Positions 6,999-64,000 of a stretch of 64,000 nucleotides of DNA are shown one piece after another. The translations under genes and the position numbers were made by a program. The DNA is from Spirochaetia bacterium (lineage in GTDB: Bacteria; Spirochaetota; Spirochaetia; WTKD01; G963693115): contig CBDDCA010000006.1 of NCBI GenBank assembly GCA_965226055.1, positions 258,251 to 322,250 on the forward strand, written 5' to 3'. Numbering within the stretch: position 1 is the first letter of the stretch; each line of letters starts with the position of its first letter. Under the pieces are notes generated by a model. The model worked only from the letters and a program-made list of their open reading frames with translations. It did not search any database and had not been told where the DNA came from.

Positions 6999-7026
6999 TA
7001 TAATAACTCCTATTTATAATACATAT

Positions 7027-9826: not shown

Positions 9827-9930
9827 CGAAAATATAAAAAATACTGAATGTATCTCTTGCCTTTATTTCTTGAATTTGTAGCAGCTATCTTTTCTGTATA
9901 ACTGTGAGTAAGGTATTTTATAAGTGGCAA

Positions 9931-10536: not shown

Positions 10537-10604
10537 AATTTTATTATATCATATTATTATCATTGAGTAAGTATGTAATCATTTGTAAGGTTGCAAATAA
10601 ACAA

Positions 10605-28360: not shown

Positions 28361-29070
28361 GTTTCTATTATATCACATCCTAAAAAATTTCTGTTTGATT
28401 TTTTACATGCTTCAAATACAGAAAAACTACCGCTTGCAGGGTCTATTACTATATCATCCTCATTTGTTACTGCTTCAATCAATGCTTTTTGTAGCTCTAT
28501 TGGCTTGTTATGAGCATGATTTCTCTCTACTTTCTCATCCCATACATCTCTTATAGTATGAACAGTCCATACTCCCTTTGCTCTTTTAGGAGCTTTCTGA
28601 ATAACATATACATATTCTGATACTCGCCTTGTTCTATACCCCATCCCTATTCTTTGTTTATTCCATGTTATAAGATCCACTATTTCTAAATGAGTTTCTA
28701 CTAACCACTTACTAATACCATTACACAAAATAAATTTGTCTACCCATAAAAAACAATGCCCCATAGGATGCAATACTCTATCTATCTCTTTTATAAACTT
28801 GTCTATTATTTTATCTGTCATCTGTGGCAAAATAGCTCTCGCTTTTTGCCGCTCCCCTTCATTTCCATATCCTTGCTTATCTAAGATTCCTCTATACTGA
28901 GGATCAAAAAATACTACTGGGAATGTATTACTATCCAACTTAGAAAGAAGATCTAAGCCATCCATCTGCATTTTTGTGTTTAGTGTTAGTCCTTTCGCTA
29001 ATGTTATATCTCCTTGCTTAATATCTCGCTTACTCGAATATACATTATTGGGATTATACTGTGCTTTCAT
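28357..29070 (-). CDS. DNA methyltransferase, beta class (N6-adenine/N4-cytosine; N6_N4_Mtase family)
   Basis: Motif IV 'VVFFDPQY' near the N-terminus and motif I '[15 protein letters not shown]' near the C-terminus. The IV-then-I order marks a beta-class amino-MTase. Confidence 0.75.
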
Positions 29071-37179: not shown

Positions 37180-38484
37180 CTAAGGAATAATGTTACTTAC
37201 AAGATAGTCTCTATTATACATGATAACTCTACCCAACTTATACTCTCTCCATTTCACAAGAATAGGTTGAGGAACAATATTCTTTTCTTGCTCCAACTGT
37301 GTTACAGTGAACATCGTACTATCATATATAGTAGCTATTTCTAAACGCTCTTTGAGCATTGTTACTAAATTACCATCAACAGACCATAATTTTATTCTTG
37401 CATCCTTTCCTGCACTTGCAATACTATTGCTCTTTCCATTAAAAGCAACTGTCCATATACGATCATTATTATCCTTAATACTTCGTTCTAAAGTAGCATT
37501 TTTTACATTCCATATATTTATACTCTCATCAGCACTACTACTAATAATATACTTTGAATCAGCACTAAACCCAACAGCATATATATTTGAAGCATGTCCT
37601 TTTAGTACACGACTTGCTCGCAGTCCTTCTTTAGACGACTTTGCCTGTGCTAAGTCATCCAACGAGTATACTATTATCGTACAATCATCACTAGCACTTG
37701 CAAGATATTTTCCATCTGCACTAAACGCCAACGCATTGACATCTCCGTAATGTCTTCTAAAGCTCTGTAAAGCAGTTATGTTTCTGTCTTGCTTTGCCAT
37801 TTCTGTATTAAAAGGAACATTCCAAAATCGTACAATATTATCTGTACCACCACTTGCAAGATATGTTCCGTCAGAACTATATGCTATAACATGTATCTCC
37901 TGTTGTGTCTGTAGCTCATCTATAAGCTGTGCATTCTCTACATCCCATATACGAATACTTCCATCTTTTCCCGCACTTGCAAGAGTATTTTCACTAGGAT
38001 GAAATGCTATAGTATACCCCTCGTTCTGTGAGATAGTATGATTTTGTGACTTATCCTGAAATTGAGCTTGAATTTGAGTAAGGATATTCCCTTTATTTGT
38101 TAGATCCCAAATAGTAATAGTACCATCAACACTCACACTTGCTACCAACGTTCCACTAGGACTATATAGTACTTGAGAAATAGCAGAGCTATGTCCTTCT
38201 AAACTACGAATAATCTGATAACTGTTTAGGTCCCATAGTTTGACTGTATTATCTTTTGATCCACTCACAAGAAAATTACCACTAGGAGAAAATGCAATGC
38301 TAACAACATCATCACTATGAATGGGCTGTGGCTCTAACCTTTCTAAGCCTACTTGTTGCATAAAATCAAGGGCTGACCCCTTCGCTACTTCCTGCTCTTC
38401 CTTATATGATGTACAGCTTGTTGCTACCAAGAGAACATAAAAAAAAGAGATTATAAATATACACTGTAATAATTGCTGTTTCAT
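37180..38484 (-). CDS. WD40-repeat beta-propeller lipoprotein
   Basis: Lipobox (LLVATSC). There are at least seven WD-like units (..GH...I..V.FSP.G..L.SGS.D.T.K.WD..). Confidence 0.7.
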   Translation of the reverse strand: MKQQLLQCIFIISFFYVLLVATSCTSYKEEQEVAKGSALDFMQQVGLERLEPQPIHSDDVVSIAFSPSGNFLVSGSKDNTVKLWDLNSYQIIRSLEGHSSAISQVLYSPSGTLVASVSVDGTITIWDLTNKGNILTQIQAQFQDKSQNHTISQNEGYTIAFHPSENTLASAGKDGSIRIWDVENAQLIDELQTQQEIHVIAYSSDGTYLASGGTDNIVRFWNVPFNTEMAKQDRNITALQSFRRHYGDVNALAFSADGKYLASASDDCTIIVYSLDDLAQAKSSKEGLRASRVLKGHASNIYAVGFSADSKYIISSSADESINIWNVKNATLERSIKDNNDRIWTVAFNGKSNSIASAGKDARIKLWSVDGNLVTMLKERLEIATIYDSTMFTVTQLEQEKNIVPQPILVKWREYKLGRVIMYNRDYLVSNIIP

Positions 38485-42087: not shown

Positions 42088-43044
42088 TCATATTGGTATC
42101 TTAATCCATGCTTGAGGCACATCTGTATCATTGATACTGTATCCTTCTTTTTCTTTAGAACTAATATACGGTAAAATTACTATCTTATCTTTATTTGTAT
42201 TAAGCCATGCTCCCCACCAACTAAATGTACTACTTGCAATTATTTGATGCTTACATTTACTTAGCAAATATAAATCTTCATGTCCTTTTGAAAGTGAATT
42301 TCCGTCCATAATAGTAAAGGATATATGAGAGAAACGATGAGCTTGCCTTTTAACCCATGCAGGATCATCACTAAAGAAAAAATAATGTGGATGCTGTAAT
42401 TTTTTCTGCATAATATGTATTGCAGCAAGATAATAATCTATACCTACCAAATTGCCTATAGTAACAACATCTGTCCTACGAATATGAACTCCCACTGATT
42501 GCTTTTTACTCAATATGATGTTTTCGTATTTTAAAGAATAGCTGCCAAGTGGATTACGAAGGGTACATTGCTGAAGAATATCACTTCGATACTCTTCAAA
42601 AAATGTATGACATTGAAACCAACCATCAAGGTACACATTATTCCCCAGACGAAATAAAGATTGTACATACTCATCTGGATACCCATATTTAACATGATGA
42701 TTATTAAACGTTTTCAAACAATATATCTTTGTAAGATACCGTTTAAGAAATAATGCTACTTTCATAGGAACATTCATTTTCCTTATAAGAGATAATAAAG
42801 CATGCACTCTCCTATAATATTTGTAAGAAGGTATTAGTAAGCAACCATATTGAGCAATAATATTATATTCATCAAGAAAAAGAATACGAGCTTTTATACT
42901 GTTACCAGCAGAATCTTTCACAAAATAATCATAATCTAAAAAATCAAGAACAACATAGGTATTATTTTTTCTTGCTAAGGCATAGGCTGTAGCGTATTGA
43001 AATAACTGATTACCAAGTCTCCCTTGTACTTTAACAGCTATCAT
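42088..43044 (-). CDS. Glycosyltransferase family 11 (alpha-1,2-fucosyltransferase-like)
   Basis: N-terminal 'MIAVKVQGRLGNQLFQYATAYALA' is the GT11 hallmark (FutC/WbsJ-like). Its start lies inside the 3' end of the upstream HtrL-like gene. Confidence 0.75.
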   Translation of the reverse strand: MIAVKVQGRLGNQLFQYATAYALARKNNTYVVLDFLDYDYFVKDSAGNSIKARILFLDEYNIIAQYGCLLIPSYKYYRRVHALLSLIRKMNVPMKVALFLKRYLTKIYCLKTFNNHHVKYGYPDEYVQSLFRLGNNVYLDGWFQCHTFFEEYRSDILQQCTLRNPLGSYSLKYENIILSKKQSVGVHIRRTDVVTIGNLVGIDYYLAAIHIMQKKLQHPHYFFFSDDPAWVKRQAHRFSHISFTIMDGNSLSKGHEDLYLLSKCKHQIIASSTFSWWGAWLNTNKDKIVILPYISSKEKEGYSINDTDVPQAWIKIPI

Positions 43045-43990
43045 ATCTTATACCATATTTATCCCTTCCATTGAGGACGTACCCCCCCCCCCCCAATTTC
43101 CACAGCATGCCTTTTACAATATTCTTAAAAGATTGATATAACGAAGGTTTCATTTTTTTCTGTAATAATTTCTCTGGTAAAAAATATTGATGAAAATAAA
43201 ACCATACATCAAAAGGATGAGGAGGATCAATCATATGAAAATATTCGGGATATCCAATGGCAAGACGAGCATATATATTTTGTTCTACTCCAATAAATGT
43301 ACCATGAGAAGACATGTTATCCTTCAATGTATAGTAAAGATTATGTATTTTTAAGAGAATAGAGCTATGAATAAGAAATAAGCCTCCAACATGTTCTCTT
43401 GTTCGCAAGGTCAATGTAGCTATATTTTCTTTCTCCTTCGCATATTGTTGAACATCAAACCTTTGTTCTGTTTTTGTCATTACTACTTTATGGGGAGACA
43501 TAGTAGTTACTTTTTCTACATCAGGCCACTGTCTAATTTCTCTTGGTTTCAAATCGTAATCATACCTACGCTTTCTTCCTCTAAACGCTCCAATATCCAT
43601 CCACATAAACCACTGCGACCGAAACACATTTAACTCATACGCTTCTTTTACAAAATGTAATTTTTCGTTCCATATAATATACAGCTCAGGATCATGTATA
43701 TCTTTTTCTTTATTTTTTGCATGATGTTCTTGATACAATGCATAATGAGCATACTCATGAAGCTGATGAAATTCTTTTATAATAACAACAGTATTTTCTT
43801 GATACTTTTTCCTTAATCGTAAAAAATAGGGAGCATGCTCTTTATCAGTAAATATAACGAGCGGGAGTTTCATATTACAGAGAAAATTTTTTATCCACTG
43901 TTTATACATATCATCACTATGTTTTGATTTCTTAAGACGATAATATGCAGTCACTATTGTGAGACTATTCTTAACAATACTTTCCTCCAA
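43031..43990 (-). CDS. HtrL/YibB-family putative glycosyltransferase, copy 1. It has a poly-G tract near its 3' end
   Basis: 'SLTIVTAYYRLKKS...' has HtrL_YibB-like N-terminal topology. It is about 96% identical to the 44115-45119 protein up to '...MLWKLGGGG', after which the tails differ. Confidence 0.6.
   Translation of the reverse strand: MEESIVKNSLTIVTAYYRLKKSKHSDDMYKQWIKNFLCNMKLPLVIFTDKEHAPYFLRLRKKYQENTVVIIKEFHQLHEYAHYALYQEHHAKNKEKDIHDPELYIIWNEKLHFVKEAYELNVFRSQWFMWMDIGAFRGRKRRYDYDLKPREIRQWPDVEKVTTMSPHKVVMTKTEQRFDVQQYAKEKENIATLTLRTREHVGGLFLIHSSILLKIHNLYYTLKDNMSSHGTFIGVEQNIYARLAIGYPEYFHMIDPPHPFDVWFYFHQYFLPEKLLQKKMKPSLYQSFKNIVKGMLWKLGGGGYVLNGRDKYGIRYDSC
43082..43094 (-). repeat. Homopolymeric tract C13 on the + strand (G13 on the coding strand). 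It lies ~17 codons before the stop of HtrL copy 1
   Basis: Counted directly: 43081 'a', then 13 c, then 'aatttcc'. Confidence 0.95.
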
Positions 43991-44114: not shown

Positions 44115-45119
44115 TCAAAAATAAGACAAGATGCCATTAGTATACAACAAAAATTCTATTTTATAAGCAAACTCTCTTTCCTTCCTTATTATTATTCCAT
44201 TGGGGTGTACCCCCCCCCCCCCCAATTTCCACAGCATGCCTTTTACAATATTCTTAAAAGATTGATACAACGAAGGCTTTATTTTTTTCTGTAATAATTT
44301 CTCTGGTAAAAAATATTGATGAAAATAAAACCATACATCAAAAGCATGAGAAGGATCAATCATATGAAAATATTCAGGATATCCAATGGCAAGACGAGCA
44401 TATATATTTTGGTCTACTCCAATAAATGTACCATGAGAAAACATATTATCCTTCAATGTATAATAAAGATTATGTATTTTTAAGAGAATAGAGCTATGAA
44501 TAAGAAATAAGCCTCCAACATGTTCTCTTGTTCGCAAGGTCAATGTAGCTATATTTTCTTTCTCTTTCGCATATTGTTGAACATCAAACTCTTCCTCTGT
44601 TTTTATCATTACTGCTTTATGGGGAGACATAGTAGTTACTTTTTCTACATCAGGCCACTGTCTAATTTCTCTTGGTTTCAAATCGTAATCATACCTACGC
44701 TTTCTTCCTCTAAACGCTCCAATATCCATCCACATAAACCACTGCGACCGAAACACATTTAACTCATACGCTTCTTTTACAAAATGTAATTTTTCGTTCC
44801 ATATAATATACAGCTCAGGATCATGTATATCTTTTTGTATATCTTTTGCATGATGTTCTTGATACAATGCATAATGAGCATACTCATGAAGCTGATGAAA
44901 TTCTTTTATAATAACAACAGTATTTTCTTGATACTTTTTCCTTAATCGTAAAAAATAGGGAGCATGCTCTTTATCAGTAAATATAACGAGCGGGAGTTTC
45001 ATATTACAGAGAAAATTTTTTATCCACTGTTTATACATATCATCACTATGTTTTGATTTCTTAAGACGATAATATGCAGTCACTATTGTGAGACTATTCT
45101 TAGCAATACTTTCCTCCAA
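44115..45119 (-). CDS. HtrL/YibB-family putative glycosyltransferase, copy 2. It has a poly-G tract near its 3' end
   Basis: Tandem paralog of 43031-43990. It is identical over most of its length and diverges at only a few residues (e.g. KDIQKD vs KNKEKD; MIKTEEEFD vs MTKTEQRFD). Confidence 0.6.
   Translation of the reverse strand: MEESIAKNSLTIVTAYYRLKKSKHSDDMYKQWIKNFLCNMKLPLVIFTDKEHAPYFLRLRKKYQENTVVIIKEFHQLHEYAHYALYQEHHAKDIQKDIHDPELYIIWNEKLHFVKEAYELNVFRSQWFMWMDIGAFRGRKRRYDYDLKPREIRQWPDVEKVTTMSPHKAVMIKTEEEFDVQQYAKEKENIATLTLRTREHVGGLFLIHSSILLKIHNLYYTLKDNMFSHGTFIGVDQNIYARLAIGYPEYFHMIDPSHAFDVWFYFHQYFLPEKLLQKKIKPSLYQSFKNIVKGMLWKLGGGGVHPNGIIIRKEREFAYKIEFLLYTNGILSYF
44210..44223 (-). repeat. Homopolymeric tract C14 on the + strand (G14 on the coding strand) in HtrL copy 2
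   Basis: Counted directly: '...tggggtgta' then 14 c (44210-44223) then 'aatttcc'. This is one nucleotide longer than the tract in copy 1. Confidence 0.95.
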
Positions 45120-51969: not shown

Positions 51970-52016
51970 ATATTTAATTCCTCCACCTCTCTTGCTTAAT
52001 CTACTTAATAAGTATA

Positions 52017-52958
52017 CTAATCTTTCAATGGAATTGTAAACACTTGCCTTTCTCTACAACATACGAGTGAGTCGAATATATTTTTTGCTTCTTTTTCAAT
52101 TTCTCCAATATCATTTAATGTATAACGAGGGCTAAAATGCAATAATGCAGCTTGGGTAACACCTCCACTTTCTTTCACCATTTGTGCAGCTTCCACCCCT
52201 GTTAAGTGTAATTTTTCTTTTGCTGCCTCCAAGTGTTCTTGCTTAAACATTCCTTCAATAAACACTAAGTCTGAACCTGCCATTTCTTGCACAATATCGG
52301 GCGTTGGACGTGTATCGGTAACATATACAATTTTTCTTCCGCTCCGTGAAGCCCCTAATACTTGATGAGGATAGTATGTTTTTTCGTCAATGGTAATTGT
52401 TTCTCCTCGCTGTAATGTTGCCCAGTGGGGACCTCGCGGTATGTTCAGCTGCACTGCCTTTTCTACATCAAATCGGCCTGGCCTCTCATGTTCAATAAAA
52501 GAAAAACCCCATACTTTACGGGTATGTTTTCCGAGAAATGTTTTGATATGAAATTCATTTTTTTTGTGACAATATACTACAGACTGATTATCCAGTTCTT
52601 CTAAAATAACATACTCTATATCAAAGTTAATGTACATACCAAGACTACGCCTTGTAGCTTCAATAAACTCTCTCACTGCTGCAGGACATACAATAGTAAG
52701 AGGAATATCACGCCCTACCTGTGAAGAGAGCATCAACAGACCAGGCAATCCCGTAACATGATCAGCATGAGAATGACTAATACATACTACATTGATTTTT
52801 TTCCAGCTTACAGAAGCCTTACGTAAACTCAACTGCAAGCCTTCACCACAATCAAACAATATCTCATCAGATCCACGTCTCAGCAATACAGACGACAAAT
52901 GCCTTCGAGGAAGAGGCAGAGACCCACTTGTTCCCATTACAATAGCTTCGAGAATCAT
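52017..52958 (-). CDS. rnz: Ribonuclease Z (tRNA 3' endonuclease, MBL fold)
   Basis: 'CISHSHADHVTGLPGLL' is the HxHxDH motif, with an N-terminal 'MGTSGSLP' and a length of ~310 aa. Confidence 0.85.
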   Translation of the reverse strand: MILEAIVMGTSGSLPLPRRHLSSVLLRRGSDEILFDCGEGLQLSLRKASVSWKKINVVCISHSHADHVTGLPGLLMLSSQVGRDIPLTIVCPAAVREFIEATRRSLGMYINFDIEYVILEELDNQSVVYCHKKNEFHIKTFLGKHTRKVWGFSFIEHERPGRFDVEKAVQLNIPRGPHWATLQRGETITIDEKTYYPHQVLGASRSGRKIVYVTDTRPTPDIVQEMAGSDLVFIEGMFKQEHLEAAKEKLHLTGVEAAQMVKESGGVTQAALLHFSPRYTLNDIGEIEKEAKNIFDSLVCCRERQVFTIPLKD

Positions 52959-52974
52959 ATATATGTAACTATGA

Positions 52975-54195
52975 CTATACTTCTACTTCTTTTGAATAGT
53001 CTACAGAGTCCCACATAAAACCATGAATAGTATAAAATTCCTTGCGAAATCCATGTATGTCTGTTTTTTCTTCAAGGTTAGTTTCATCTATTTGATTCCA
53101 AATATCCGCTACTTTCTTCTGAATATCGTCTCGCATTTCCCAATCATCCATACGAATACGCTGATGTTCATCAGTACGAATACCTACATTAGTCGCATGC
53201 TCACTTCCGTATATTCTTTCACTAAAGAGTCTCCCCATTTGTTCTATGCATCCTTCATGAATGCCTTCTTCTTTCATCACCTTATATAATATAGCAAGAT
53301 ACAAGGGAACGACAGGAATGACACTACTAGCTCGCGTTACTAACGCTTTATTTACCGAAACATATGCTCGACCGAGTCCTGCTGACTGCATTGCAGTATC
53401 AAGCTCATGTGCAGTAGCTTCTAAATCTTCTTTTGCTTTGCCTATTGTTCCGCTTCTATATAGCTCCTTTGTTAGTTCAGGACCGATATATGAAAACGCA
53501 ATATTGAAGGAATTTTCAGCCAATACCCCAGCTTTCATCAATGCCTCTGTCCATAGCTTCCAATCTTCTCCTCCCATCACTTTCACAGTGTGAGCAATCT
53601 CTTCCTCACTTGCAGGAGCAACATCAATATCATATAAAGAAGAATCAACTATATTGATTGACTTTCCTACAAAATTGTTTCCTATCGGTTTTAATACCGA
53701 ATTATATACTTCCCCTGTAGTAGGATCAATACGCTTTGGTGAAGCAAGGCTATAAATAACAAGATCTATCTTTCCCATTTCTTGCTGTATTACATCAATA
53801 CACTGCTGTTTTATTTCATTACTAAATGCGTCACCATAAATGGAGTTACACCAGAGCCCTGCTTGTTTTGCTTCCGCTTCAAAGGCATGCGTGTTATACC
53901 AGCCTACAGTAGCAGTTCGCTTTTTTGCAGGATTAGCAGGAGCTTCAAAGGCAACACTCAGTGTCTTTGCTCCATATCCAAATGCAGCAACAATACGCGA
54001 GGCTAAGCCATATCCTGCAGATCCTCCAAGAATCAGTACATTTTTCGGAGCATTACTGCTCTTATCTTGAATACTTTGTATGTGTTTTTTGACATACTCA
54101 ATTTGTGATTGCACTAATTTTGTACACCCAGTTGGATGTGCATTTATACAGACATTTTTCATTATTTTTGGTGATACTATCATACTTTCTGCCAT
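52975..54195 (-). CDS. fabV: Trans-2-enoyl-CoA/ACP reductase (FabV/Ter family)
   Basis: 'CINAHPTGC', 'GGSAGYGLASRI' and ~400 aa match the Ter/FabV pattern. The true start may be the internal M (MIVSPKIM) a few codons in. Confidence 0.8.
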   Translation of the reverse strand: MAESMIVSPKIMKNVCINAHPTGCTKLVQSQIEYVKKHIQSIQDKSSNAPKNVLILGGSAGYGLASRIVAAFGYGAKTLSVAFEAPANPAKKRTATVGWYNTHAFEAEAKQAGLWCNSIYGDAFSNEIKQQCIDVIQQEMGKIDLVIYSLASPKRIDPTTGEVYNSVLKPIGNNFVGKSINIVDSSLYDIDVAPASEEEIAHTVKVMGGEDWKLWTEALMKAGVLAENSFNIAFSYIGPELTKELYRSGTIGKAKEDLEATAHELDTAMQSAGLGRAYVSVNKALVTRASSVIPVVPLYLAILYKVMKEEGIHEGCIEQMGRLFSERIYGSEHATNVGIRTDEHQRIRMDDWEMRDDIQKKVADIWNQIDETNLEEKTDIHGFRKEFYTIHGFMWDSVDYSKEVEV

Positions 54196-54283
54196 ACTTA
54201 CTCCTATTGATTAAAATATATTACATGGTATTTTACATTATATTAAAACAATGGTATTGTTGCAGTAACTTATTATTGGGGAT

Positions 54284-54324
54284 CACGAGTTCAAGGATTA
54301 AATGCGACAAAGGAGCAAAAAAAG
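54284..54324 (+). repeat. Solo IS30-family left-end copy heading the second duplicated cassette
   Basis: The 58 bp from 54281 are identical to 54781-54838, the left end of the intact IS. Confidence 0.6.
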
Positions 54325-54473
54325 TAAGAAAAATAAAACAAAGCATATTTTTATTAGCTACTACATATAGTGTATATTTAGTATATAATTTTCAATTTAA
54401 GCACTAGAGAAATTTGCTTTATTTTTATATTAATGTTATACTAAATGCAGAATAATAAGAGAACAATAACATT

Positions 54474-54731
54474 ATGAGTGTACAAGTAAAAACTGATACA
54501 AAAGAAACTACTTTAATTTTAAATAATACCGATAAGGAAAATTTGGAAAGATGTTTCTCGGAATGGAAATTCAAAGATTATCAAAGTCTTATGAGGTTCG
54601 TATCATCTATTTTAATTGAGAGCGAAGATAAAATAACAATAGGCATTAAGAAAAGTGGAGTGCTAAAAGAATTTTCACCAGCAGACCATTTAGTAAACGA
54701 TGTCAGAACCTCAGAACAACCAAAAAAGTAG
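54474..54731 (+). CDS. Small hypothetical protein (85 aa), paralog of 27048-27281 with a divergent C-terminal tail
   Basis: Identical over the first ~72 residues apart from one substitution (A5V), then '..HLVNDVRTSEQPKK' where the other copy reads '..HLLKDS'. Confidence 0.45.
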   Translation: MSVQVKTDTKETTLILNNTDKENLERCFSEWKFKDYQSLMRFVSSILIESEDKITIGIKKSGVLKEFSPADHLVNDVRTSEQPKK

Positions 54732-54785
54732 TGATAATTATATCACCGATCAACAGTTAAAGGAATTTAATTATGTCACCGATCA

Positions 54786-55864
54786 CGAGTTCAAGGATTA
54801 AATGCGACAAAGGAGCAAAAAAAGTAAGAAAAAATAAAAAAAGGAGACACTCTATAATTGTATAAACGAAACAAATTAGGAGGTCTCCTTTATGAGTATA
54901 CCAAAAAACTCATTTCGTCATCTGACAGAGAAAGATCGTACTATTATCGCTACGCTCCGTCATGCAAAGTACAGTGTCAATGCTATAGCCAAACGCCTCA
55001 GTGTCCATCGCAGCACTGTCTATCGTGAAATACAACGCAATGGGGGCAAACGTGTCTATAATGAAGTCATTGCTCACAGACGGGCAAGAAAACGATGGGA
55101 ACAGAGTCATACAAAACACTCTGTTCTTTCTCATACTATTCGTACCTATATCGTTTTTCACCTTATTTTCGATGGCTGGTCGCCCGAACAAATAGCAGGA
55201 AGGCTCAGTATTGATATGCCTCAGTATGCTATCAGTCATGAGACGATATATCACTTTATTTACCGTTTCGCTCCTCATTTGACACAGTATCTGCGAAAAC
55301 AGCACCAAACACGCAAAAAAAGAACCATATCTCACTCTTTTTCTGTTTCTCGTATCCCTCATCGTGTCTCAGTACACGAACGAGGCGATGTTTCTAATGA
55401 ATATGGCCACTGGGAAGTAGATCTTGTTGGCTCTTCTTCAAAAGCTACTGTGCTTGCTTTAGTGGAAAAACATACCCGTTATGTTCTTTTTCATAAGATA
55501 CCTGACAAAACTGCTCATACCGTACAGTATGGCATGCTCTTTGCTCTAAGGAACATACCACGCCATTTATGTAACAGTTTCACTTATGATAATGGGAGTG
55601 AATTTATGCTCCATACTGAAATAAATACACGCTTGAATGCTCGTTCTTATTTTTGTACTCCTTACTGTGCTTGGGAAAAAGGATTAGTCGAACATTCTAT
55701 TGGATTATTACGTCAGTACTTTCCTAAGAAGACTTTGTTTCATAGAGTCAAGCAAAGTGATATACTACAAGTACAAACGCTTATCAATCATAGACCACGA
55801 AAATGTCTTCATTTTTTGACCCCTGCTGAAGCCTTTTCTGTCGCATTTAGTCCTTGAATCCGCA
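54786..55864 (+). mobile_element. Intact IS30-family insertion sequence (~1.08 kb) with terminal inverted repeats of ~23-25 bp
   Basis: IRL 'cgagttcaaggattaaatgcgaca' (54787-54810). The reverse complement of the right end (55839-55863) reads 'gcggattcaaggactaaatgcgaca'. A single transposase ORF is present and its stop lies inside the IRR. Confidence 0.8.
54892..55857 (+). CDS. IS30-family DDE transposase
   Basis: An N-terminal HTH ('..NAIAKRLSVHRSTVYREIQRNGG', cf. IS30 '..RSTISRELKRN') and a C-terminal DDE region (HWEVDLV ... YDNGSEF ... CLHF). An RBS 'aggagg' lies 8 nt upstream. Confidence 0.85.
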   Translation: MSIPKNSFRHLTEKDRTIIATLRHAKYSVNAIAKRLSVHRSTVYREIQRNGGKRVYNEVIAHRRARKRWEQSHTKHSVLSHTIRTYIVFHLIFDGWSPEQIAGRLSIDMPQYAISHETIYHFIYRFAPHLTQYLRKQHQTRKKRTISHSFSVSRIPHRVSVHERGDVSNEYGHWEVDLVGSSSKATVLALVEKHTRYVLFHKIPDKTAHTVQYGMLFALRNIPRHLCNSFTYDNGSEFMLHTEINTRLNARSYFCTPYCAWEKGLVEHSIGLLRQYFPKKTLFHRVKQSDILQVQTLINHRPRKCLHFLTPAEAFSVAFSP

Positions 55865-56137
55865 CTTAGTACAGAAAATAATAAGGAAATGATAATTACT
55901 CTTATGGCTGATAAATTTGAAATTGCTAAAGACGCAATGACTTATCGTCTGGGATTACAAAATAAATAGCTTTTTTATGATAGCCTAAAAAACTCTCTGT
56001 AATTGCCCATCATAGCAATACTACAAAAATTTTAATTTTTTACTATAATACTAGTGTATGATGATAACATACAATAATGAAACAAAAGGAGTATTTCTAT
56101 GAATGAAAATAGAGAGCTACAAAGTATGAAAAAAATC

Positions 56138-56152
56138 GGGGGGGGGGGGGGG
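56138..56152 (+). repeat. Homopolymeric G15 tract inside the 5' end of the lipoprotein reading frame (a candidate slipped-strand phase-variation switch)
   Basis: Counted directly: 'aaaaaatc' + 15 g + 'tacactc'. The upstream ATG at 56099 (with a GGAG RBS 8 nt upstream) reads MNENRELQSMKKIGGGGG and terminates at the TAA at 56177 in the current frame. Confidence 0.95.
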
Positions 56153-56190
56153 TACACTCTCGATATAAGCAAAACCTAACTATACTAGTA

Positions 56191-59100
56191 GTGCTAGCAA
56201 TGACTACCCTCGTACTTGTAGGATGTGCAGAGAGTAGCAACAATTCCTCATCAGGCGGAGGGGGAAAACAGGTAACCCCGACACTCGCATCAGTGTCCAA
56301 TGTGCAGATACAAGCAGCAAGCAACGATGGGACGCTCTCGTTACGCTGGCAAGCTCCCAGCGAAGCCACGCATGTAGTAGTAAAAGCTACATCAACTGCG
56401 CCAGCACAATCTATACAGGTGCGTGTTCCTGCAATAGAATATCGTGCATTGTTTCAACAAAACAGACCCTACACCCTCAGAGGCTTGCATGCCACTACCG
56501 ATTATACAGTAGAGATAGAAGCACAAAAATCAGACTCAGAAGTATCACCAAAAACAACACGCTCTGTGACAACACTGATCGATGAAACTGCACCACAGGA
56601 CACTTTTACACGGGTAGCAGTAGAGAAAGCACAAAACGATAGTATAAAGCTAACATGGGACAAAGCACTGCTATCGTCAGGCAAGACAGACATAGCCGAA
56701 GCCACAATACAGGTGATAGAAAGAACTACTAATGTAAGGGCAGAAGTATCAGTACAAGATGTAACACAAGGAGAGGTGAGCATTGCTGTCCCCACTATAG
56801 ACGGCATAAGCTATGATATAGTAGTAGTATACAAAGATAGCAACGGTAACGAAAGCACAGCAAAGCAAGCACTCAGAGGCATAGTGCCATCAGCACTCTC
56901 ACAAACAGTAACGCCACTTTCCGCATCAGACCTTACAGTAACAGCAAACGATAAAAGCAATAGCCCAGCCGATGAAAGCCTGCTTATTATGTGGGATGAT
57001 AAAGATGACAGCTTTGACTTTTCAAACAAAAGCCTCCAAGTACGCGTTATAGCAACCGCAACAAATACAGTAGTAGCAGAGGAGACAATAGACAAAGATA
57101 CAAGTGCAACAAATGTCAGCGGAGCAAGTGCAGACAACCAAGAGTACGCCACTGTGTATGTAGCAAAAGATGGCATAGCACTCACAAAACTCTATGGCAC
57201 GCTTACCTACAAAGTAGAAGTGTATGTTTCTCAAAACGGAAAGTACTCCACTGCAGTGTCAAAAGAACAAGCAACAACAGACAAAAGCACAGAGCCTGTA
57301 AGCAATGTAAGTGCCGTAGGAGGAGCAACAAGCATAGTAGTAGGCTGGCAAGCCCCCGATGTACGAGATTATGCAGGAGTGACTATAACAGTAACAGAAA
57401 AGGACAGCACAACAGCAGCAAAGACAGTGACAATAACAGAGAGAACAGTACGCAACACACAGATAACAGACCTCAAAGCAACCACCGAGTATACAGTGGC
57501 AGTCGTATCAATGGACAGTGCAGGCAACAAAGGAACAGAAGCAACAGCCACAGTCAGCACATCAGCAGATAGCACCGCCCCCGATGCAGTAACAAGCATA
57601 CAAGCAAGCTATCCTTTTGTATCAGCAGCAAAGATAGGCACACAGATAACATGGACAGCACCCGATGCAGCAAAAGCAAAGAACAAAGACATAAAAGAAT
57701 ACAGCGTAAGCATAGCAGAAAAAGGCACAAGCACCACAGTACTGAGCGAGAAGAAAATACCCTATCCCACAAAGTCACTCTCTGTAGAAGAACTTGTGCA
57801 AGGCAAAACATATACCATAACAATACTCACGCTTGATTACTCAGAAAACAAAAGTAGCCAAGCCACAAAAGACATAACAACCCCCAACTCACTCACAGCT
57901 CCCTCAGAAGATCTCTTTCAAAGCAAGCCTACCCTTGACAAAACAGGAGCTATACAGATAAAAGCAACTTTTAAGAATGCTCCAAGCATAGGACGATACT
58001 ACACCTTGCGTATGAAAGAGGGAGCTACCTTAATAGCAGAAAAAAGCATAACAAACACAGCAATCACCATTAGCTTTGGGATAGCAGATGGCTTAGAAGT
58101 ACCTAAGAGCCAAGCAAATGCCAAGAATTATCGCTTTGATTTTCTGCAAATAGCAAATAACAGAGTAAGTCCAGTAACCGCACTGAGTGATGCAGTAGCA
58201 GTATACGATAGCACCTCGACAGCACCGCCCGCTCCCAAAGATGCAAAGCTCTCCGTAGAGTCAGTAACCCAAACAACTGCAAAAGCAGTCTATACATTTA
58301 GTGCAGGAGACATTACTGATACCAACAAAGCACCCAGCGGAAGCAAACTCACACAGGCACAAATACAATACAAAGTATACATAGCAGCAGGAGACCACAG
58401 CACAAAAACACTAGACGAAATAAAAGCCCTTGCAGGAGTACAAACAAGAGAGCTAGCAGGAAACAGCACTCCATTAAAAGCAACATTTATAGGAACGAAA
58501 GGAGCAGACTATACCGCAGGGGTAGAAGCAATAAACAGCCTCAATCCATCATATAGTACAGGAGCATCAGTAACAATAAAGAAAGCAACACTTACTGCTC
58601 CCCCAAGCACACCAAAAGTAACAACCTACACTAACAGTAATGCAGTGGTATTTGCAGTGCCTACCACAGGAAGTAACAGCGGGAAAAAAGTCATAACAGT
58701 ACAACTCAATGCCTCAGACATAGCAGGAGTGAGCAAGGCAAATGGCAATGCCCTTGAAGCGACAGACCTTGCCTACTATGTGCTATACCTCAAGAAAGAA
58801 GATAGCACAGGAAAGCCTGCCAGCGTATCAGCACTATGGGCAACAGAAAAGAGCAGTACAAGAGTGGCAAAATACACAAAAGCAACAGGAACAACTCAAG
58901 ACACAATATCCATAGCAATAGTAGACAGCACCAGTGGAAGCAATGCAGGAGCCACACCCATAGAAACAGCAAAAGACTACTACATAGGAGTAAGGATAGT
59001 CAACACAACATCCCCCAATTACGATGCAACAAATAGCGACAAGCTCTTTCCTGCAGGCTTTTACACCGATGTAACAGAAATAAAGGAAATCTATACTTCC

Positions 59101-60906
59101 AAAGCAGTAGCACCCAGCCAGTCATTACTCACAGGAAAGCTGGTAGTATCACAGTCAACAAATACTACAGGCACAATAAAGCTGGTACTTACCGAGCTAA
59201 ATACATTTACAGGAGCAAAAGACTACGATGGCACAAACATAACAGCAAATGACAAGCTAGTATACACAGTGTATGGCTTACAGAAAGACACCACTCCTAC
59301 AGTAGCAGAAGTACTTGCAGGCAGAAAAGTAAACCTAGGCAGTGCAAGTAGCGGAGTGTACACAGTACCAGCTCTTGCCAGTTTAGGCTTATCTTCAGAC
59401 ACAGCACCAGTAGTAGCAATAAAAGGAGCGACAAAGTATTACTTTGTGGTAGAGGTAGCAATAAAAACAGACCCTAGCAAGAAAGTAGCATCCTCAACAG
59501 TAGCAAGCGTAACAACCGCATCGCAGGCGACCGCCCCCGCAGAAGTAAGCAGTATACAGACAAGAGTAGCCCAGACAGGCATGAGAGTATCGTGGACAGC
59601 CCCCAGCCTCAGTGCAAGCCACAAAGCAAATACAGGCGATGCCCTAACAGTAGCACAAGTATCGTACAAGGTATACAAAGTAGCTAAGGGAGGCAGTGCA
59701 AAAAGTGTAGCAGCAATAAAACAAGCAGACTCAAGTCCTACAACAGTAGCAGCAGGAACAACAAACACTACCCTGACAGGATTGACAAACGGAACGACCT
59801 ACGAAATAGTAGTGCAAGCAGTAAACAGCACCGATGATACAAAAGCATCCACTGGACTACGCCACGAGTTTGAAGCAAGAGGAATAGCTATAGGAAACAC
59901 TAGCATAGTCTCAGCAGAAGTAGGCAAAACGCCAGCAATAAATATTACAAGAGTACTTACCAGTAACTCTGCCTTTACCTGTGATGCAAACATACTAGAG
60001 GCAGATGCAAAGAAGATAAAACAAGAAACAGGGCTAGCAGTATCGTTTGATCAGAGTAGCAAAACAGTTACTATAACAGGCATAGCAAATAAGTCTAATA
60101 TACGAGATACAGCCATTACTGAGTATAACTATGCTGTAGCACAGTGTACAATAACCGCTTCAAAGAAAAAAGTGCCAGCCACCATCGTGATACAGACAGA
60201 GCTAAGAACAGCACCATCAGGAAAAGCAGAAGCCTATTACAGACCAACAACAAAGGCACAGCTTCAAACTATTATCAGTGAAGAAAAGACAAGGCAAGGT
60301 TCAGGAGGAAACAGTAACCCTAGCCCCAACCTCAACATGATAGACACCAGTGCTATTACTGATATGAGCCAATTATTTCAGAATGATACTACTTTTAATG
60401 GAGATCTAACACAGTGGAATACCAGTAATGTAACGAGAATGAATGGTATGTTTACTGATGCAAGTGTTTTTAATCAAAATATAGGAGATTGGGATACAGG
60501 AGAAGTTATACATATAGGTAGTATGTTTTTTAGAGCAAGTGTTTTTAATCAAAATATAGGAAGCTGGAATATAAGTAAAGTTAAAAATATTGATAGTATG
60601 TTTGCTAGTGCCAGTGCTTTTAATCAAGACATAGGAAATTGGGACACAAGCAATGTTATTAATATGAGTACTACATTTTTGAGTGCAAGTGCCTTTAATC
60701 AAGACATAGGAAACTGGAATGTAAAGAATGTCGATTCTATAACTGGTATGTTTAACGGAGCTTCTACATTTGATCAAGATTTATCATCATGGATATTGTG
60801 TAAAGCAAGTCTCACTTTTTTGGAGTTCGAAAATTCGGCTATGGATGGAAAAACAGCAAAGTACCCGACAGTAAAGCGTCAAAGTGATCCAGCATGTACA
60901 TCGTAA
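56191..60906 (+). CDS. Large chimeric surface lipoprotein (1571 aa): Ig/FN3-like domains plus a C-terminal DUF285 repeat module
   Basis: Lipobox (..LVLVGC). Several 'S(L/I)..W.AP' FN3-like domains. One FN3 unit (about 59520-59880) is homologous to the 1791-4043 repeats. The C-terminal 'NLNMIDTSAITDMSQLF..FNQNIGDWDT..' carries six DUF285 repeats. The frame is open from 56113, but the strong start at 56099 is out of frame. Confidence 0.75.
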   Translation: MLAMTTLVLVGCAESSNNSSSGGGGKQVTPTLASVSNVQIQAASNDGTLSLRWQAPSEATHVVVKATSTAPAQSIQVRVPAIEYRALFQQNRPYTLRGLHATTDYTVEIEAQKSDSEVSPKTTRSVTTLIDETAPQDTFTRVAVEKAQNDSIKLTWDKALLSSGKTDIAEATIQVIERTTNVRAEVSVQDVTQGEVSIAVPTIDGISYDIVVVYKDSNGNESTAKQALRGIVPSALSQTVTPLSASDLTVTANDKSNSPADESLLIMWDDKDDSFDFSNKSLQVRVIATATNTVVAEETIDKDTSATNVSGASADNQEYATVYVAKDGIALTKLYGTLTYKVEVYVSQNGKYSTAVSKEQATTDKSTEPVSNVSAVGGATSIVVGWQAPDVRDYAGVTITVTEKDSTTAAKTVTITERTVRNTQITDLKATTEYTVAVVSMDSAGNKGTEATATVSTSADSTAPDAVTSIQASYPFVSAAKIGTQITWTAPDAAKAKNKDIKEYSVSIAEKGTSTTVLSEKKIPYPTKSLSVEELVQGKTYTITILTLDYSENKSSQATKDITTPNSLTAPSEDLFQSKPTLDKTGAIQIKATFKNAPSIGRYYTLRMKEGATLIAEKSITNTAITISFGIADGLEVPKSQANAKNYRFDFLQIANNRVSPVTALSDAVAVYDSTSTAPPAPKDAKLSVESVTQTTAKAVYTFSAGDITDTNKAPSGSKLTQAQIQYKVYIAAGDHSTKTLDEIKALAGVQTRELAGNSTPLKATFIGTKGADYTAGVEAINSLNPSYSTGASVTIKKATLTAPPSTPKVTTYTNSNAVVFAVPTTGSNSGKKVITVQLNASDIAGVSKANGNALEATDLAYYVLYLKKEDSTGKPASVSALWATEKSSTRVAKYTKATGTTQDTISIAIVDSTSGSNAGATPIETAKDYYIGVRIVNTTSPNYDATNSDKLFPAGFYTDVTEIKEIYTSKAVAPSQSLLTGKLVVSQSTNTTGTIKLVLTELNTFTGAKDYDGTNITANDKLVYTVYGLQKDTTPTVAEVLAGRKVNLGSASSGVYTVPALASLGLSSDTAPVVAIKGATKYYFVVEVAIKTDPSKKVASSTVASVTTASQATAPAEVSSIQTRVAQTGMRVSWTAPSLSASHKANTGDALTVAQVSYKVYKVAKGGSAKSVAAIKQADSSPTTVAAGTTNTTLTGLTNGTTYEIVVQAVNSTDDTKASTGLRHEFEARGIAIGNTSIVSAEVGKTPAINITRVLTSNSAFTCDANILEADAKKIKQETGLAVSFDQSSKTVTITGIANKSNIRDTAITEYNYAVAQCTITASKKKVPATIVIQTELRTAPSGKAEAYYRPTTKAQLQTIISEEKTRQGSGGNSNPSPNLNMIDTSAITDMSQLFQNDTTFNGDLTQWNTSNVTRMNGMFTDASVFNQNIGDWDTGEVIHIGSMFFRASVFNQNIGSWNISKVKNIDSMFASASAFNQDIGNWDTSNVINMSTTFLSASAFNQDIGNWNVKNVDSITGMFNGASTFDQDLSSWILCKASLTFLEFENSAMDGKTAKYPTVKRQSDPACTS

Positions 60907-60927
60907 CATAGAGAGAGATACATACTT

Positions 60928-60960
60928 ATGGCAAGAAAGGAAATACTCTTTTCTTGCCAT
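60928..60960 (+). terminator. Hairpin downstream of the lipoprotein stop (11-bp perfect stem, 10-nt loop). A weak terminator candidate with no U-tract
   Basis: 'atggcaagaaa-ggaaatactc-tttcttgccat'. Confidence 0.3.
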
Positions 60961-61084
60961 AAGAGTATAAAATTCATAAAAACAAGCATCATCAATTTCT
61001 CCATACATGAAATTATAGACAATAATAAGGAATTATATGGTATACTAAAAAATATACACTGCAATTAGTTTATACCTATTATTT

Positions 61085-61657
61085 ATGCAACAGAAAGCAT
61101 CTGCCACAGACACACAAGAACTACAGGACATTATCTCAGCATTAGATAACGAACAATATAGAAATAGCTTTGGTCGTATAGTACGTAATCTTGAAGACAT
61201 TAAAACATACACAAAAAAACTATATCTCAAAAATATGCTACAGATAGCACTTTCACAAAACTATACATGCATAGATGAAGAAACATTTGCTCTTGCAGAA
61301 ACACAAGAACACGATACACTGTCTTTAGCAATACGTTCTGGATCAGAATGTGGTGGCGTATACTATGCCCTGTTTCTAAAAAGCAAAAACTATACTCTCC
61401 CTGCATATCTTACACTAAAATCTTTCTGTGATACGACTATTCCTCGTATTATTGGCTGTCATAGTCCCGAACAAATACCTTTCTTTTGGAATTACTTTAA
61501 TCCCGCCATTAACTTTCTGTTCTTCTCCGATAACAACACTCTCTCCCTTCTTCATACACAATCACGACAAAAAATAGTTACGCAGCACTGGAAACAGTTA
61601 CATCAGTTCTTACACACTATTACCGATGAAGTAAAGAAACATTTCACTCTATTGTAA
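61085..61657 (+). CDS. Hypothetical protein (190 aa)
   Basis: A long ORF with no recognisable motif. Confidence 0.4.
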   Translation: MQQKASATDTQELQDIISALDNEQYRNSFGRIVRNLEDIKTYTKKLYLKNMLQIALSQNYTCIDEETFALAETQEHDTLSLAIRSGSECGGVYYALFLKSKNYTLPAYLTLKSFCDTTIPRIIGCHSPEQIPFFWNYFNPAINFLFFSDNNTLSLLHTQSRQKIVTQHWKQLHQFLHTITDEVKKHFTLL

Positions 61658-61690
61658 GATTGTAAGCATAGCCTCTTATTATTCCTCATA

Positions 61691-62458
61691 TTAGTTATTA
61701 TTAAACTCACGAAAAGAATCTATTTCTTTTTGAGTATATAATTCAGACAGAGGAGATATTTCTTCAATTTCAATAAAAGGGACTTTATATTGTAATTGCT
61801 CACGCCATACTCTCATATCCTTTACTGTTTCAAAATCTATGGTACGAACAATCTTCATATGCTTTTTTTTATTTTGCTGTTCAAACTCCACCACTGCAAA
61901 TTTTCCGCCCCCTATATACTGTATTTCTTGTCCTTCCTGTATGTCTTCACAGGCTTGTACATATGCTATTGCCTCATCAAAACTCACATACTCATCGCTT
62001 GCTCCCTTGTTAAAGGCAGTCAATACTTCAGATATGGGCTTACCACTATCACTAGACACTAGCTGTAAAGAAGTATCAGGAGACACAACATGAGGCACAG
62101 CTCCCTTAGGATAACTACGCGACTGAGGCACAGAAACAGGATTATCTTTTTGATACATTGTTTCGCTTGATATATGAGTAGCTTTTATCTTTGTCATACG
62201 TAACCCTGTTTGTACACCAGCAAGAACAATAGTAGTTTCCTTATTATGAGATTGATTGCCGTGTGTACTTTTTGAATCTATCTTTTTATCTCCCTTTTTT
62301 GCTTTTTTTGTCAGCGACTGAGAAGACTGTTTGTTATATGCCGTAGCATTACTATGCTGTTGCTTTGTATCATCATGTTTAGCAACATGCTTGCCTACAC
62401 TTTTTTGGGTATTCTTCTTTTTTCCAAAAAAGCTATTGCGTATATGCTTTTTTTCCAT
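61691..62458 (-). CDS. Hypothetical basic protein (255 aa) with a low-complexity, lysine-rich N-terminus
   Basis: An ORF of good coding quality. The conserved-looking C-terminal half (..IQYIGGGKFAVVEFEQQ..) belongs to no family I can name. Confidence 0.45.
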   Translation of the reverse strand: MEKKHIRNSFFGKKKNTQKSVGKHVAKHDDTKQQHSNATAYNKQSSQSLTKKAKKGDKKIDSKSTHGNQSHNKETTIVLAGVQTGLRMTKIKATHISSETMYQKDNPVSVPQSRSYPKGAVPHVVSPDTSLQLVSSDSGKPISEVLTAFNKGASDEYVSFDEAIAYVQACEDIQEGQEIQYIGGGKFAVVEFEQQNKKKHMKIVRTIDFETVKDMRVWREQLQYKVPFIEIEEISPLSELYTQKEIDSFREFNNN

Positions 62459-62483
62459 GTATATAGTATAATTAAAATATACA

Positions 62484-64000
62484 ATGAGTACAACTCTATT
62501 TTTAGTTGATGGACATGGGCTTATTTTTCGTTCCTATTATGCTCATATTAAAAATCCATTACGAAATTCACAGGGACATAACACTTCAGCTATTTATGGT
62601 TTTTTTCAAAGCATAAAAAAAATCTTTACTGACTATGCTCCTTCAGATATCGTAATTGCATTGGATTCACATGAGGCAGAACTTGAACGTAAAAAAGTAT
62701 ATCCAAACTACAAAGCAAATCGACAAAAAACTCCCGAAGATCTTAAAACACAAATCGCTATTATCATAGACATCATTAAAGCTATGGAAATTCCTCATTT
62801 AAGCGTACTTGGACATGAAGCCGATGATATTATAGCTACCTTATCAAGAAAAAAGAGCAAAGACAACATAGCAAGTACCATAGTAAGCTCTGATAAAGAT
62901 CTCTTTCAATTACTTGGAGATAATGTTTCTATATTACGTCCTACAAGTAAAAGCAGCGATTGGATACCGATAACTCCAGCATGGATTCAAGAAAACTATA
63001 ATATTGAATATTCCCAAATTCATGACTATCTTGCTATTATTGGAGATAGTAGCGACAATATTCCGGGTGTTGCAGGATTAGGACCAAAAACAGCAGCAGC
63101 ATTATTACAAAATTACAAAAATCTCGATGAAATATTTGCTAACATTAGCAACTTAAAAGAAAGCTGGCGAAAAAAACTCGTGGATGCCAAAGAAATAGCA
63201 CAATTAAGCTATGCACTTATTGCCTTACACTATGATGTTCCTATCCCTGACAATTTTACTACCGCATATCCCGAATTATTATGGCATAAAGCTCATAGTA
63301 TTTTTGAAAATAATGATATATCCAGTTTTCCCACAAAAAACCCACACGGTAGCACTTCCACACAAAACACCACTACTGCTTCGCCTAACGATACCGAAAC
63401 ACATAGTTCCACAGCATCATGTTCCGTTAGCATTATTGAAAAAACTGAACAATTACAAGCAATAGTAAACACTGCGTTAGACAAAAACATCATAAGCATA
63501 TATCCTGTGTATACAGGACATACCCCACATACTACCCTTACTGGACTTGCTCTTGCTTGTAGTGAACATCAAGCCTACTATCTTCCTTTCTCTTCATCAA
63601 CAGGAGATAACGATACCAAGAAAGAGGAGCATGTTTCATATAACACATTGATGGAAGATAGCACATCAAGAAAAACATGTATAGACCTATTACAATCGTT
63701 ATTCAAAAGTAAGAAATGCGTACTTCTATTTCATGATGCAAAGCAAGCACTCAATATACTGTACAGAGAAGGCTTTGAAAAAGCACATAATTACTTTCAT
63801 CCAAAAAAGCACAGTTTTGCTATAGTAGATTGCATCATTGCAGCATGGCTTATTTCACCCGAAAATAATCAGTACGATATAGCATCATTATGTAACAAAT
63901 ACCTCCCTCAGCATCCTCTTACGAACTCTATACATACACTGTCTTTTCTGACAGACAATACAGACGCTTCATCACTCGTACATAGTGCTGGCATTCATAG
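62484..64000 (+). CDS. polA: DNA polymerase I (5' partial; 5'-3' exonuclease domain plus the start of the 3'-5' exonuclease region), running off the window end
   Basis: 'LFLVDGHGLIFRSYYA', '..DSHEAELERKKVYPNYKANR', 'GEHEADDIIATL' and 'IPGVAGLGPKTAAALL' are the 5'-nuclease/H3TH motifs of Pol I. This ORF is absent from the ORF track because it is edge-truncated. Confidence 0.85.
   Translation, partial: MSTTLFLVDGHGLIFRSYYAHIKNPLRNSQGHNTSAIYGFFQSIKKIFTDYAPSDIVIALDSHEAELERKKVYPNYKANRQKTPEDLKTQIAIIIDIIKAMEIPHLSVLGHEADDIIATLSRKKSKDNIASTIVSSDKDLFQLLGDNVSILRPTSKSSDWIPITPAWIQENYNIEYSQIHDYLAIIGDSSDNIPGVAGLGPKTAAALLQNYKNLDEIFANISNLKESWRKKLVDAKEIAQLSYALIALHYDVPIPDNFTTAYPELLWHKAHSIFENNDISSFPTKNPHGSTSTQNTTTASPNDTETHSSTASCSVSIIEKTEQLQAIVNTALDKNIISIYPVYTGHTPHTTLTGLALACSEHQAYYLPFSSSTGDNDTKKEEHVSYNTLMEDSTSRKTCIDLLQSLFKSKKCVLLFHDAKQALNILYREGFEKAHNYFHPKKHSFAIVDCIIAAWLISPENNQYDIASLCNKYLPQHPLTNSIHTLSFLTDNTDASSLVHSAGIH

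Follow-up and report, generated by a model that had tools for sequence, protein, structure and literature searches.

A run of 15 G in the signal-peptide coding region of a giant lipoprotein gene is most probably, as judged from its sequence and that of its paralogs, the switch of a slipped-strand translational phase-variable (contingency) gene. The gene lies in a 64,000-nt stretch of a Spirochaetia bacterium contig (CBDDCA010000006.1; this whole stretch, with 34.7% G+C, is hereafter called the window). A first-pass annotation made from the letters of the window had proposed such an ON/OFF switch, and the proposal is strongly supported by 33 tract-bearing paralogs in a related genome. The mechanism is already known, and what is unusual is that one module recurs so often and so uniformly in an uncultured spirochete. 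The first-pass annotation had missed the gene family, which has roughly 40 members, and two more poly-G tracts in the window.

The features of the locus are compiled in Table 1. The tract, which was confirmed to consist of exactly 15 G, separates a short leader from a 4.7-kb open reading frame (ORF; GTG 56191 to 60906, 1571 aa), the frame of which differs from that of the leader, as had been described. A Shine-Dalgarno (SD) sequence is present before ATG 56099 as claimed, its GGAG being spaced 7 nt from the ATG. Translation agreed with the earlier statement that ATG 56099 and a second ATG at 56126 both cross the tract: they share a frame, read MKKIGGGGGYTLDISKT, and end at the same TAA at 56177-56179. 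The body frame is open back to 56113, reading RGGGGVHSRYKQNLTILVVLAMTTLVLVGC. The distance to the tract is about 90 nt from the -10-like box and 39 nt from the start at ATG 56099, and the leader is homologous to the paralog leader class MNDSYKSKELYS[VIM]KKI. A generic sigma-70 scan did not list the conserved -10-like box at 56044 and found no good -35, so that the promoter call rests on conservation among the paralogs. Rfam gave zero matches at the gathering threshold across the window, and hence no known RNA element explains the region. At all tract lengths, the predicted mRNA fold of 56086-56118 has the SD and ATG region paired to the leader codons that come next (GAGUAUUUCUAU / AUAGAGAGCU).

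Table 1. Coordinates of the lipoprotein locus and of the two other long poly-G tracts in the window.
Feature	Position	Strand	Remark
Putative -10-like promoter box TATAAT, context TACTATAAT	56044-56049	+	Conserved in paralogs
Shine-Dalgarno AAGGAG	56086-56091	+	(A)AGGAG 6-8 nt before the leader ATG in 33/33 paralogs
Leader coding for the n-region, MNENRELQSMKKI, with second in-frame ATG 56126	56099-56137	+	
A7 run inside the leader	56129-56135	+	
Poly-G tract G15, putative hypermutable switch element	56138-56152	+	
TAA reached when n = 2 mod 3 (G14, G17; ...GGGGGTLSI*)	56166-56168	+	Frame simulation; kept in paralogs
TAA reached at the present G15, n = 0 mod 3 (...YTLDISKT*)	56177-56179	+	Translation
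Remaining signal-peptide portion (body frame): VHSRYKQN, h-region LTILVVLAMTTLV, lipobox L-V-G-C	56152-56226	+	
Lipobox LVGC	56215-56226	+	
Mature lipoprotein body including stop codon: Ser/Gly linker, FN3 repeats, C-terminal DUF285/PARCEL repeats	56227-60906	+	
Poly-G tract G13	43082-43094	-	In HtrL/YibB-like gene 43031-43990
Poly-G tract G14	44210-44223	-	In HtrL/YibB-like gene 44115-45119

To determine the frame at each tract length n, the region was reconstructed for every length from G10 to G20, with translation begun at ATG 56099. At G10, G13, G16 and G19 (n = 1 mod 3), leader and body were fused in one ORF of 1600-1603 aa starting MNENRELQSMKKIGGGGGVHSRYKQNLTILVVLAMTTLVLVGCAESS. Translation stopped at TAA 56177 at G12, G15 and G18 and at TAA 56166 at G11, G14, G17 and G20, and all of these non-ON lengths yielded peptides of 21-27 aa. 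Within the simulated range, a change of one unit thus joined or separated start and body, and the earlier estimate that one in three tract lengths is in frame was borne out. However, the first-pass annotation had swapped the two alternative frames: it had assigned the fusion to G14 or G17, which run into TAA 56166, and that stop to G13 or G16, which give the fused ORF. The present G15 is one G short of, or two G's above, an ON length. With 15 units, the tract is also well within the slippage-prone range, which was set at about 8 or more for a G/C mononucleotide repeat.

As had been foreseen, fusion gives MNENRELQSMKKIGGGGGVHSRYKQNLTILVVLAMTTLVLVGC, which is consistent with a lipoprotein signal peptide. 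By a PROSITE-type pattern, the fused form MKKIGGGGGVHSRYKQNLTILVVLAMTTLVLVGC has a charged n-region with K/R within the first 7 residues, an h-region and a lipobox [LVI][ASTVI][GAS]C, with the Cys at residue 34 from ATG 56126 and at residue 43 from ATG 56099. The internal starts had been considered unsuitable, which is consistent with the same pattern: from GTG 56191, the Cys is at residue 12 and there is no charged n-region, and the product from ATG 56200 fails the pattern, so that the internal starts are predicted to give no exportable lipoprotein. ATG 56126 was rejected as the main start, since this position is often GTG or ATC in the paralogs; across the paralogs, the start that is conserved is the ATG at 56099, with its SD.

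The tract is real and not a product of chance. In 100 dinucleotide-preserving shuffles, a run of 13 G never arose, and the expectation from composition was about 1.6e-5. The lengths of the G/C runs in the window are bimodal, with 23 runs of length 5-6 and none of 7-12, followed by C13, C14 and G15, and long G/C tracts are a distinct, maintained class in this genome.

Strong evidence comes from the relatives of the gene. A protein search with the fused sequence gave 67 clusters of 1,400-1,700 aa with 52-90% identity, which came from a handful of assemblies and were located on contigs of 2,360,799, 957,439, 726,939, 216,694, 162,075, 145,498 and 40,519 bp; the window product is cluster P0002, on the 957-kb contig. 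A locus scan, which covered one genome per species, detected 41 loci, all on one complete chromosome of 2.36 Mb (OZ244590.1; a metagenome-assembled genome (MAG): Spirochaetia bacterium), about 8% of which is taken up by the 41 copies of about 4.7 kb. The phosphoglucose isomerase (PGI) of the window is 98% identical to that of the OZ244590.1 genome, indicating that the two genomes are very close relatives, whereas the best cross-genome identity of the lipoprotein is only about 80%. Compared with housekeeping genes, the family therefore diverges, or is turned over, at a much higher rate. Among JGI metagenome contigs, the protein pattern and the DNA pattern AAATC-G11+-TACACTCTC were both without match, and the family seems to be confined to a few ENA/NCBI assemblies.

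At 33 of the 41 loci, a tract of G11 to G18 is present at the homologous site between nearly invariant flanks (AAAAAAATC / TACACTCTCGATATAAGCAAA), with one copy of 11 G, four of 12, one of 13, 11 of 14, nine of 15, four of 16, one of 17 and two of 18. Apart from these 33 tracts, the 222 kb of loci contain no G/C run that reaches 9. In all 33 copies, (A)AGGAG and an ATG precede the tract by 33-72 nt and the leader frame stays open up to it; a (g/a)CTATAAT box lies another 40-60 nt upstream in nearly all of them. Each copy thus represents a self-contained expression unit, and both TAA stops beyond the tract are conserved as well. The tract is in frame in eight copies (L004, L007, L010, L011, L017, L024, L028 and L035), and 14 copies need one G more and 11 one G less. 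The group lacking one G includes L033, in which a 2-nt deletion after the tract shifts the reading frame and which was re-derived by hand. The distribution over the three phases did not differ from a uniform one (chi-square 1.64, p = 0.44), as expected for free switching. In at least 30 of the 33 copies, no stop interrupts the body over more than 1,020 codons, up to where the fetched locus ends, and extra frameshifts were found only in L003 and L011, that of L011 lying downstream of an in-frame tract.

The A-run just 5' of the tract also varies among the copies (A4, A6, A7 and A8) and shifts the register, such that L007 is ON at G14, L010 at G17 and L011 at G15; it could be a second, slower slippage site. 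Five copies (L005, L008, L023, L037 and L041) have no tract, and L021 has a degenerate tract GGAGGG (at about 2410-2420; 'MRKLGGLHSQYKQ') that is in frame; these six copies seem to have the same leader in a locked form. At L013, a TTG within the A-run was considered as a real start and rejected.

The called N-termini of the family, from which the state of the paralogs in the window's own genome was judged, are of three types: those in frame with a poly-Gly stretch, e.g., MIHRDLHSIKKIGGGGGVHSRYKQN; truncated ones starting MLAITTLVLVGC or MTTLVLVGC, which is the form that gene callers yield from an out-of-frame copy; and tract-less leaders, e.g., MKKSNEKLNYQLNGKL and MKKVMKKYWLIAL.

With 25 of the 33 copies out of frame, the family might be regarded as a set of pseudogenes or a silent archive, in which the out-of-frame copies are dead or serve as gene-conversion donors and the tract is a scar or a recombination signal, similarly to the donor-cassette models of Mycoplasma synoviae vlhA and the donor sites of Treponema pallidum tprK. 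The relationships among the copies are in part compatible with this. There are two body subfamilies, which differ by 26% between and only about 6% within them, the latter suggesting concerted evolution. How far the copies differ in the 170 nt preceding the tract is almost uncorrelated with how far they differ in the gene body (Mantel r = 0.07-0.09), compared with an r of 0.93 between parts of the body, and leader classes cross the body subfamilies, as seen for L004 and L027 and for L040 with L018, L025 and L031; L022, L026, L030 and L039 carry subfamily-2 leaders. Since the promoter and leader classes are shuffled with respect to the bodies, recombination has clearly taken place, with a junction implied in or close to the conserved block of tract and signal peptide. 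However, silent cassettes would not need, and would lose, private expression signals, and every out-of-frame copy keeps the SD, ATG and open leader, nearly all of them with a -10-like box. Moreover, the family products are full-length, at about 1,500-1,600 aa, and each out-of-frame copy is only one or two G's away from being in frame. The retention of promoter, SD, leader and 4.7-kb ORF thus argues that the out-of-frame copies are not pseudogenes or silent cassettes, and we consider an archive very improbable; they look like genes that are selected while ON and parked while OFF.

The module may also take part in recombination. In a calculation with the ViennaRNA G-quadruplex model, the predicted stability jumps at G15 or longer, with a change from two to three layers. 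Because the histories of module and body are independent and tracts of G15 or more should, by prediction, be capable of folding into a three-layer G-quadruplex, recombination stimulated by the tract, as with the pilE G-quadruplex of Neisseria, could by analogy be what shuffles the family and lets it evolve in concert. The broader idea that the poly-G module is the organiser of one of the largest known surface-protein systems controlled by simple sequence repeats, with 33 genes of 4.7 kb that switch independently, and perhaps also a recombination junction, is speculative, and we give it only a small chance.

Several points weigh against the slipped-strand switch or limit what can be concluded from it. 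The variation in tract length observed lies between the paralogs of a relative and not between cells. When the flanks of the gene (52000-56098 and 60907-64000) were compared with the 41 loci as a search for a positional ortholog, only short repeat matches to L012 were obtained. The contig of the relative is named ctg26443_14x_c, which we take to point to a long-read metagenome assembly of about 14x, and the consensus length of a homopolymer of 11-18 bases in it may be off by one. For this reason, the ON/OFF state of any single copy, including that in the window, is insecure, and the near-uniform distribution of phases could partly be noise. The statement that the gene is currently OFF therefore holds for the assembled sequence, but this is only the consensus call of a 15-base homopolymer. 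In addition, slippage of RNA polymerase on a 15-G template could make the OFF state leaky, and lipidation at the Cys and surface exposure of the product are predicted from sequence.

It may accordingly be asked whether the OFF state is a consensus artefact, with a true tract of G16 (or G13) and an intact, expressed gene. The low coverage of the relative's assembly is in line with such a miscall, one added G would restore the frame, and the body ORF is intact. On the other hand, a miscall changes the present state only and not the nature of the element, and the span of 11-18 among the paralogs is too wide for errors of one base in either direction around a single in-frame length. It also seems unlikely that 25 of 33 copies were miscalled, and frameshifts are absent from other genes of the window, although these contain many A/T runs of 7-9. 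We therefore regard a miscall at the window tract as possible but not likely.

Alternatively, the G run could be a site of transcriptional slippage or ribosomal frameshifting, by which the tract tunes the dose of the product instead of turning it ON or OFF. Messages or proteins in mixed frames would then arise, and each paralog would be produced to some extent at any DNA tract length. A homopolymer longer than the RNA:DNA hybrid is a condition for slippage of RNA polymerase, and the tracts of 11-18 nt exceed that length; the three phases are, moreover, about equally common, as expected under little selection on phase. Riboshifting has been offered as an alternative for the poly-G of a P48-like gene of Mycoplasma agalactiae (PMC2824730). 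However, both wrong frames end within 5-9 codons at a conserved TAA, which fits a designed OFF state, and in the poly-G contingency genes of Neisseria and Campylobacter and in Mycoplasma bovis P68, the length of the tract in the DNA sets expression (PMC2824730, PMC11868660). Such tuning of dose is thus rather improbable, and slipped-strand switching remains the preferred explanation.

For the switch, we propose the following mechanism. The gene would be transcribed from its own promoter, probably with the -10-like box at 56044, and translation would start at ATG 56099 behind its SD, with the leader coding for the charged n-region only. The tract would be read as Gly codons between the n-region and the h-region with the lipobox, and slipped-strand mispairing during replication would add or remove G's. 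At n = 1 mod 3 (G13 or G16), a prolipoprotein of about 1,600 aa would be produced, and its export, lipidation at the Cys and display could follow. Either of the other two phases would end translation after 22-27 codons at one of the two conserved TAA stops, and products of internal starts would be without a usable signal peptide. With about 30-40 paralogs per genome, most of which have the same private module, a random and changing subset would be displayed by each cell. Length change may occur at high frequency within a population, and it may serve in evading host immunity, phage or predators.

The architecture of the product was characterized by domain searches. In Pfam, fn3 was matched in four stretches (8e-27) and DUF285 at the C-terminus (2e-57), and the score for the latter model, PF03382, was 192 bits against a cut-off of 25, which places the protein among the DUF285/PARCEL proteins. 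The PARCEL repeat model of NCBIfam (TIGR02167) was also matched, with 39.5 bits against a cut-off of 30. The score for the Mbov_0838 PARCEL surface lipoprotein model (NF045896) was 127 bits against a cut-off of 500 and covered the repeat region only; by these scores, the window protein shares the PARCEL repeat but is not a member of the Mbov_0838 family. Tandem Repeats Finder detected tandem units of 75 nt (25 aa) at 60442-60754. The order of parts, with a Ser/Gly linker behind the putatively lipidated Cys, then an extended stalk of FN3 type and finally a PARCEL head, would fit a surface adhesin-like lipoprotein. Per-column conservation among 65 paralogs was fairly even, with the C-terminal ~120 residues (the PARCEL end) the most variable, and the profile contained no clear variable cassette.

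The arrangement had been called unusual, which is true for spirochetes, but it has a precedent in lipoprotein genes of mycoplasmas, including those of the PARCEL/DUF285 type (PMC2996958, PMC2824730). In M. agalactiae, the PARCEL (DUF285) lipoprotein genes MAG1330 and MAG3260 have poly-G in the 5' coding region (PMC2996958), and in the P48-like gene of M. agalactiae (G10) and P68 of M. bovis (G8-10), one tract length gives a complete signal peptide (PMC2824730). The window gene resembles these in that it codes for a lipoprotein and has a G tract in its N-terminal, signal-peptide coding region, the length of which decides whether signal peptide and body are joined, and its product has the same type of C-terminal repeat (DUF285, TIGR02167) as MAG1330 and MAG3260. 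The mycoplasma cases concern a monoderm Mollicute, tracts of 8-13 G and two PARCEL genes, whereas the present case is that of a diderm spirochete, with tracts of 11-18 G in 33 of 41 paralogs that share one identical module, and the window protein, of about 1,600 aa, has a stalk rich in FN3.

Neisseria opa, which has the pentamer CTCTT, and pilC, in which poly-G lies in the signal peptide, likewise carry their repeat within the sequence coding for the signal peptide and have one ON phase in three. The Neisseria proteins are outer-membrane beta-barrel or pilus-tip proteins, not lipoproteins, and have no sequence relationship to the window protein: a whole-protein Pfam scan yielded only fn3-type families and DUF285, with no homology to Opa or PilC. 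As in opa, with 11 independently switching genes in N. gonorrhoeae (reviewed in PMC11868660), the genes form a family in which each copy would switch alone, with combinatorial expression. The family here is about three times larger than opa, with genes of about 4.7 kb each. In scale, its roughly 8% of the genome is comparable to vlhA (pMGA) of Mycoplasma gallisepticum, which has tens of genes and occupies around a tenth of the genome. vlhA is likewise a large lipoprotein family, each gene having its own promoter and its own simple repeat (PMC6258824). The vlhA switch is, however, a GAA repeat upstream of the promoter and acts on transcription, in contrast to the mononucleotide run in the ORF that would act here on translation, and the proteins are unrelated.

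Poly-G has also been associated with surface-protein genes in another spirochete, T. pallidum, in which tprE/G/J, tprL and tp0126 have variable tracts, with promoter tracts of 7-11 G and length heterogeneity in vivo (PMC7864442). Those tracts are in promoters and alter transcription, whereas the tract here lies inside the ORF, 39 nt past the start codon, and shifts the frame, which sets it apart from a promoter switch of the T. pallidum type; the protein families differ as well. In the phasomes of Campylobacter jejuni and Helicobacter pylori, low-GC genomes contain many intragenic long G/C tracts, including those in glycosyltransferase genes. These are spread over many unrelated genes, in contrast to the single expanded paralog family considered here; the other tracts of the window, in HtrL/YibB-like genes beside a GT11 fucosyltransferase-like gene, are more similar to them.

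If the switching is true, some 30-40 giant lipoproteins, each toggled at random by its own poly-G, would take up about 8% of the genome in this lineage, which would achieve combinatorial surface variation at the scale of M. gallisepticum vlhA with a translational switch of the opa/pilC type. This would extend translational poly-G variation to spirochete lipoproteins, for which we found only promoter switches described (T. pallidum, PMC7864442), and would point to strong fluctuating selection, by host immunity, phage or grazers, on the surface of an organism that is known from metagenomes alone. Gene callers trim the genes of the family to 'MLAITTLVLVGC...' and the signal peptide is lost, so that annotation and lipoprotein prediction miss the nature of the family.

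Further observations were made on the loci of OZ244590.1. All 12 loci below 1.02 Mb are on the plus strand and 26 of the 29 above 1.19 Mb are on the minus strand; the G-rich coding strand would thus nearly always be the leading strand, if the origin is near position 0. L042 contains two family genes in tandem (3001-7596 and 7980-10596), 384 nt apart. L001 has a T15 run at about 2415-2430 and no lipobox at the signal-peptide site, and its product is called MYFFFFFFLW.... In L016, the N-terminal module runs on from an upstream ORF, and this locus is perhaps a tandem fusion like the 2,616-aa P0001.

The two other poly-G tracts of the window (Table 1) are located ~17-30 codons ahead of the stops of two paralogous HtrL/YibB-like genes, directly downstream of which is the GT11 fucosyltransferase-like gene (42088-43044). 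They are not an obvious ON/OFF switch, because a change in their length alters only the last 5-30 residues of proteins of 308-334 aa. Their flanks, AAATT-Gn-TAC, resemble the AAATC-Gn-TAC of the lipoprotein tract.

Among the neighboring genes, an IS30-family transposase gene (54892-55857, +) ends ~240 nt upstream of the lipoprotein leader. Shortly upstream of it, two segments of ~47 nt (54284-54330 and 54784-54830), 500 nt apart, match the same stretch of L012 and may be ends of an insertion sequence or a dispersed repeat. Two other large surface-protein genes are present in the window, and the poly-G tract is absent from both: one (10605-19073, -) codes for a protein of 2,822 aa, in which 18 DUF285 stretches and He_PIG domains are preceded by ...FLVSGC, similar to a lipobox, at the N-terminus, and the other (1791-4043, +) for a 750-aa FN3 protein, MKLNIFYLFFIFLVFSLFTC. 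For the PGI gene (29067-30632, -), the nearest named match, at 69%, is in a scallop (Ylistrum balloti) assembly, presumably in bacterial DNA, and the next named matches, at about 60%, are in Spirochaetaceae/Spirochaetales MAGs, which hints that the wider lineage is associated with a marine or invertebrate setting. The product of a further gene of the window (37180-38484, -), a WD40 beta-propeller protein of 434 aa, strongly matches WD40 models of the eukaryote type.

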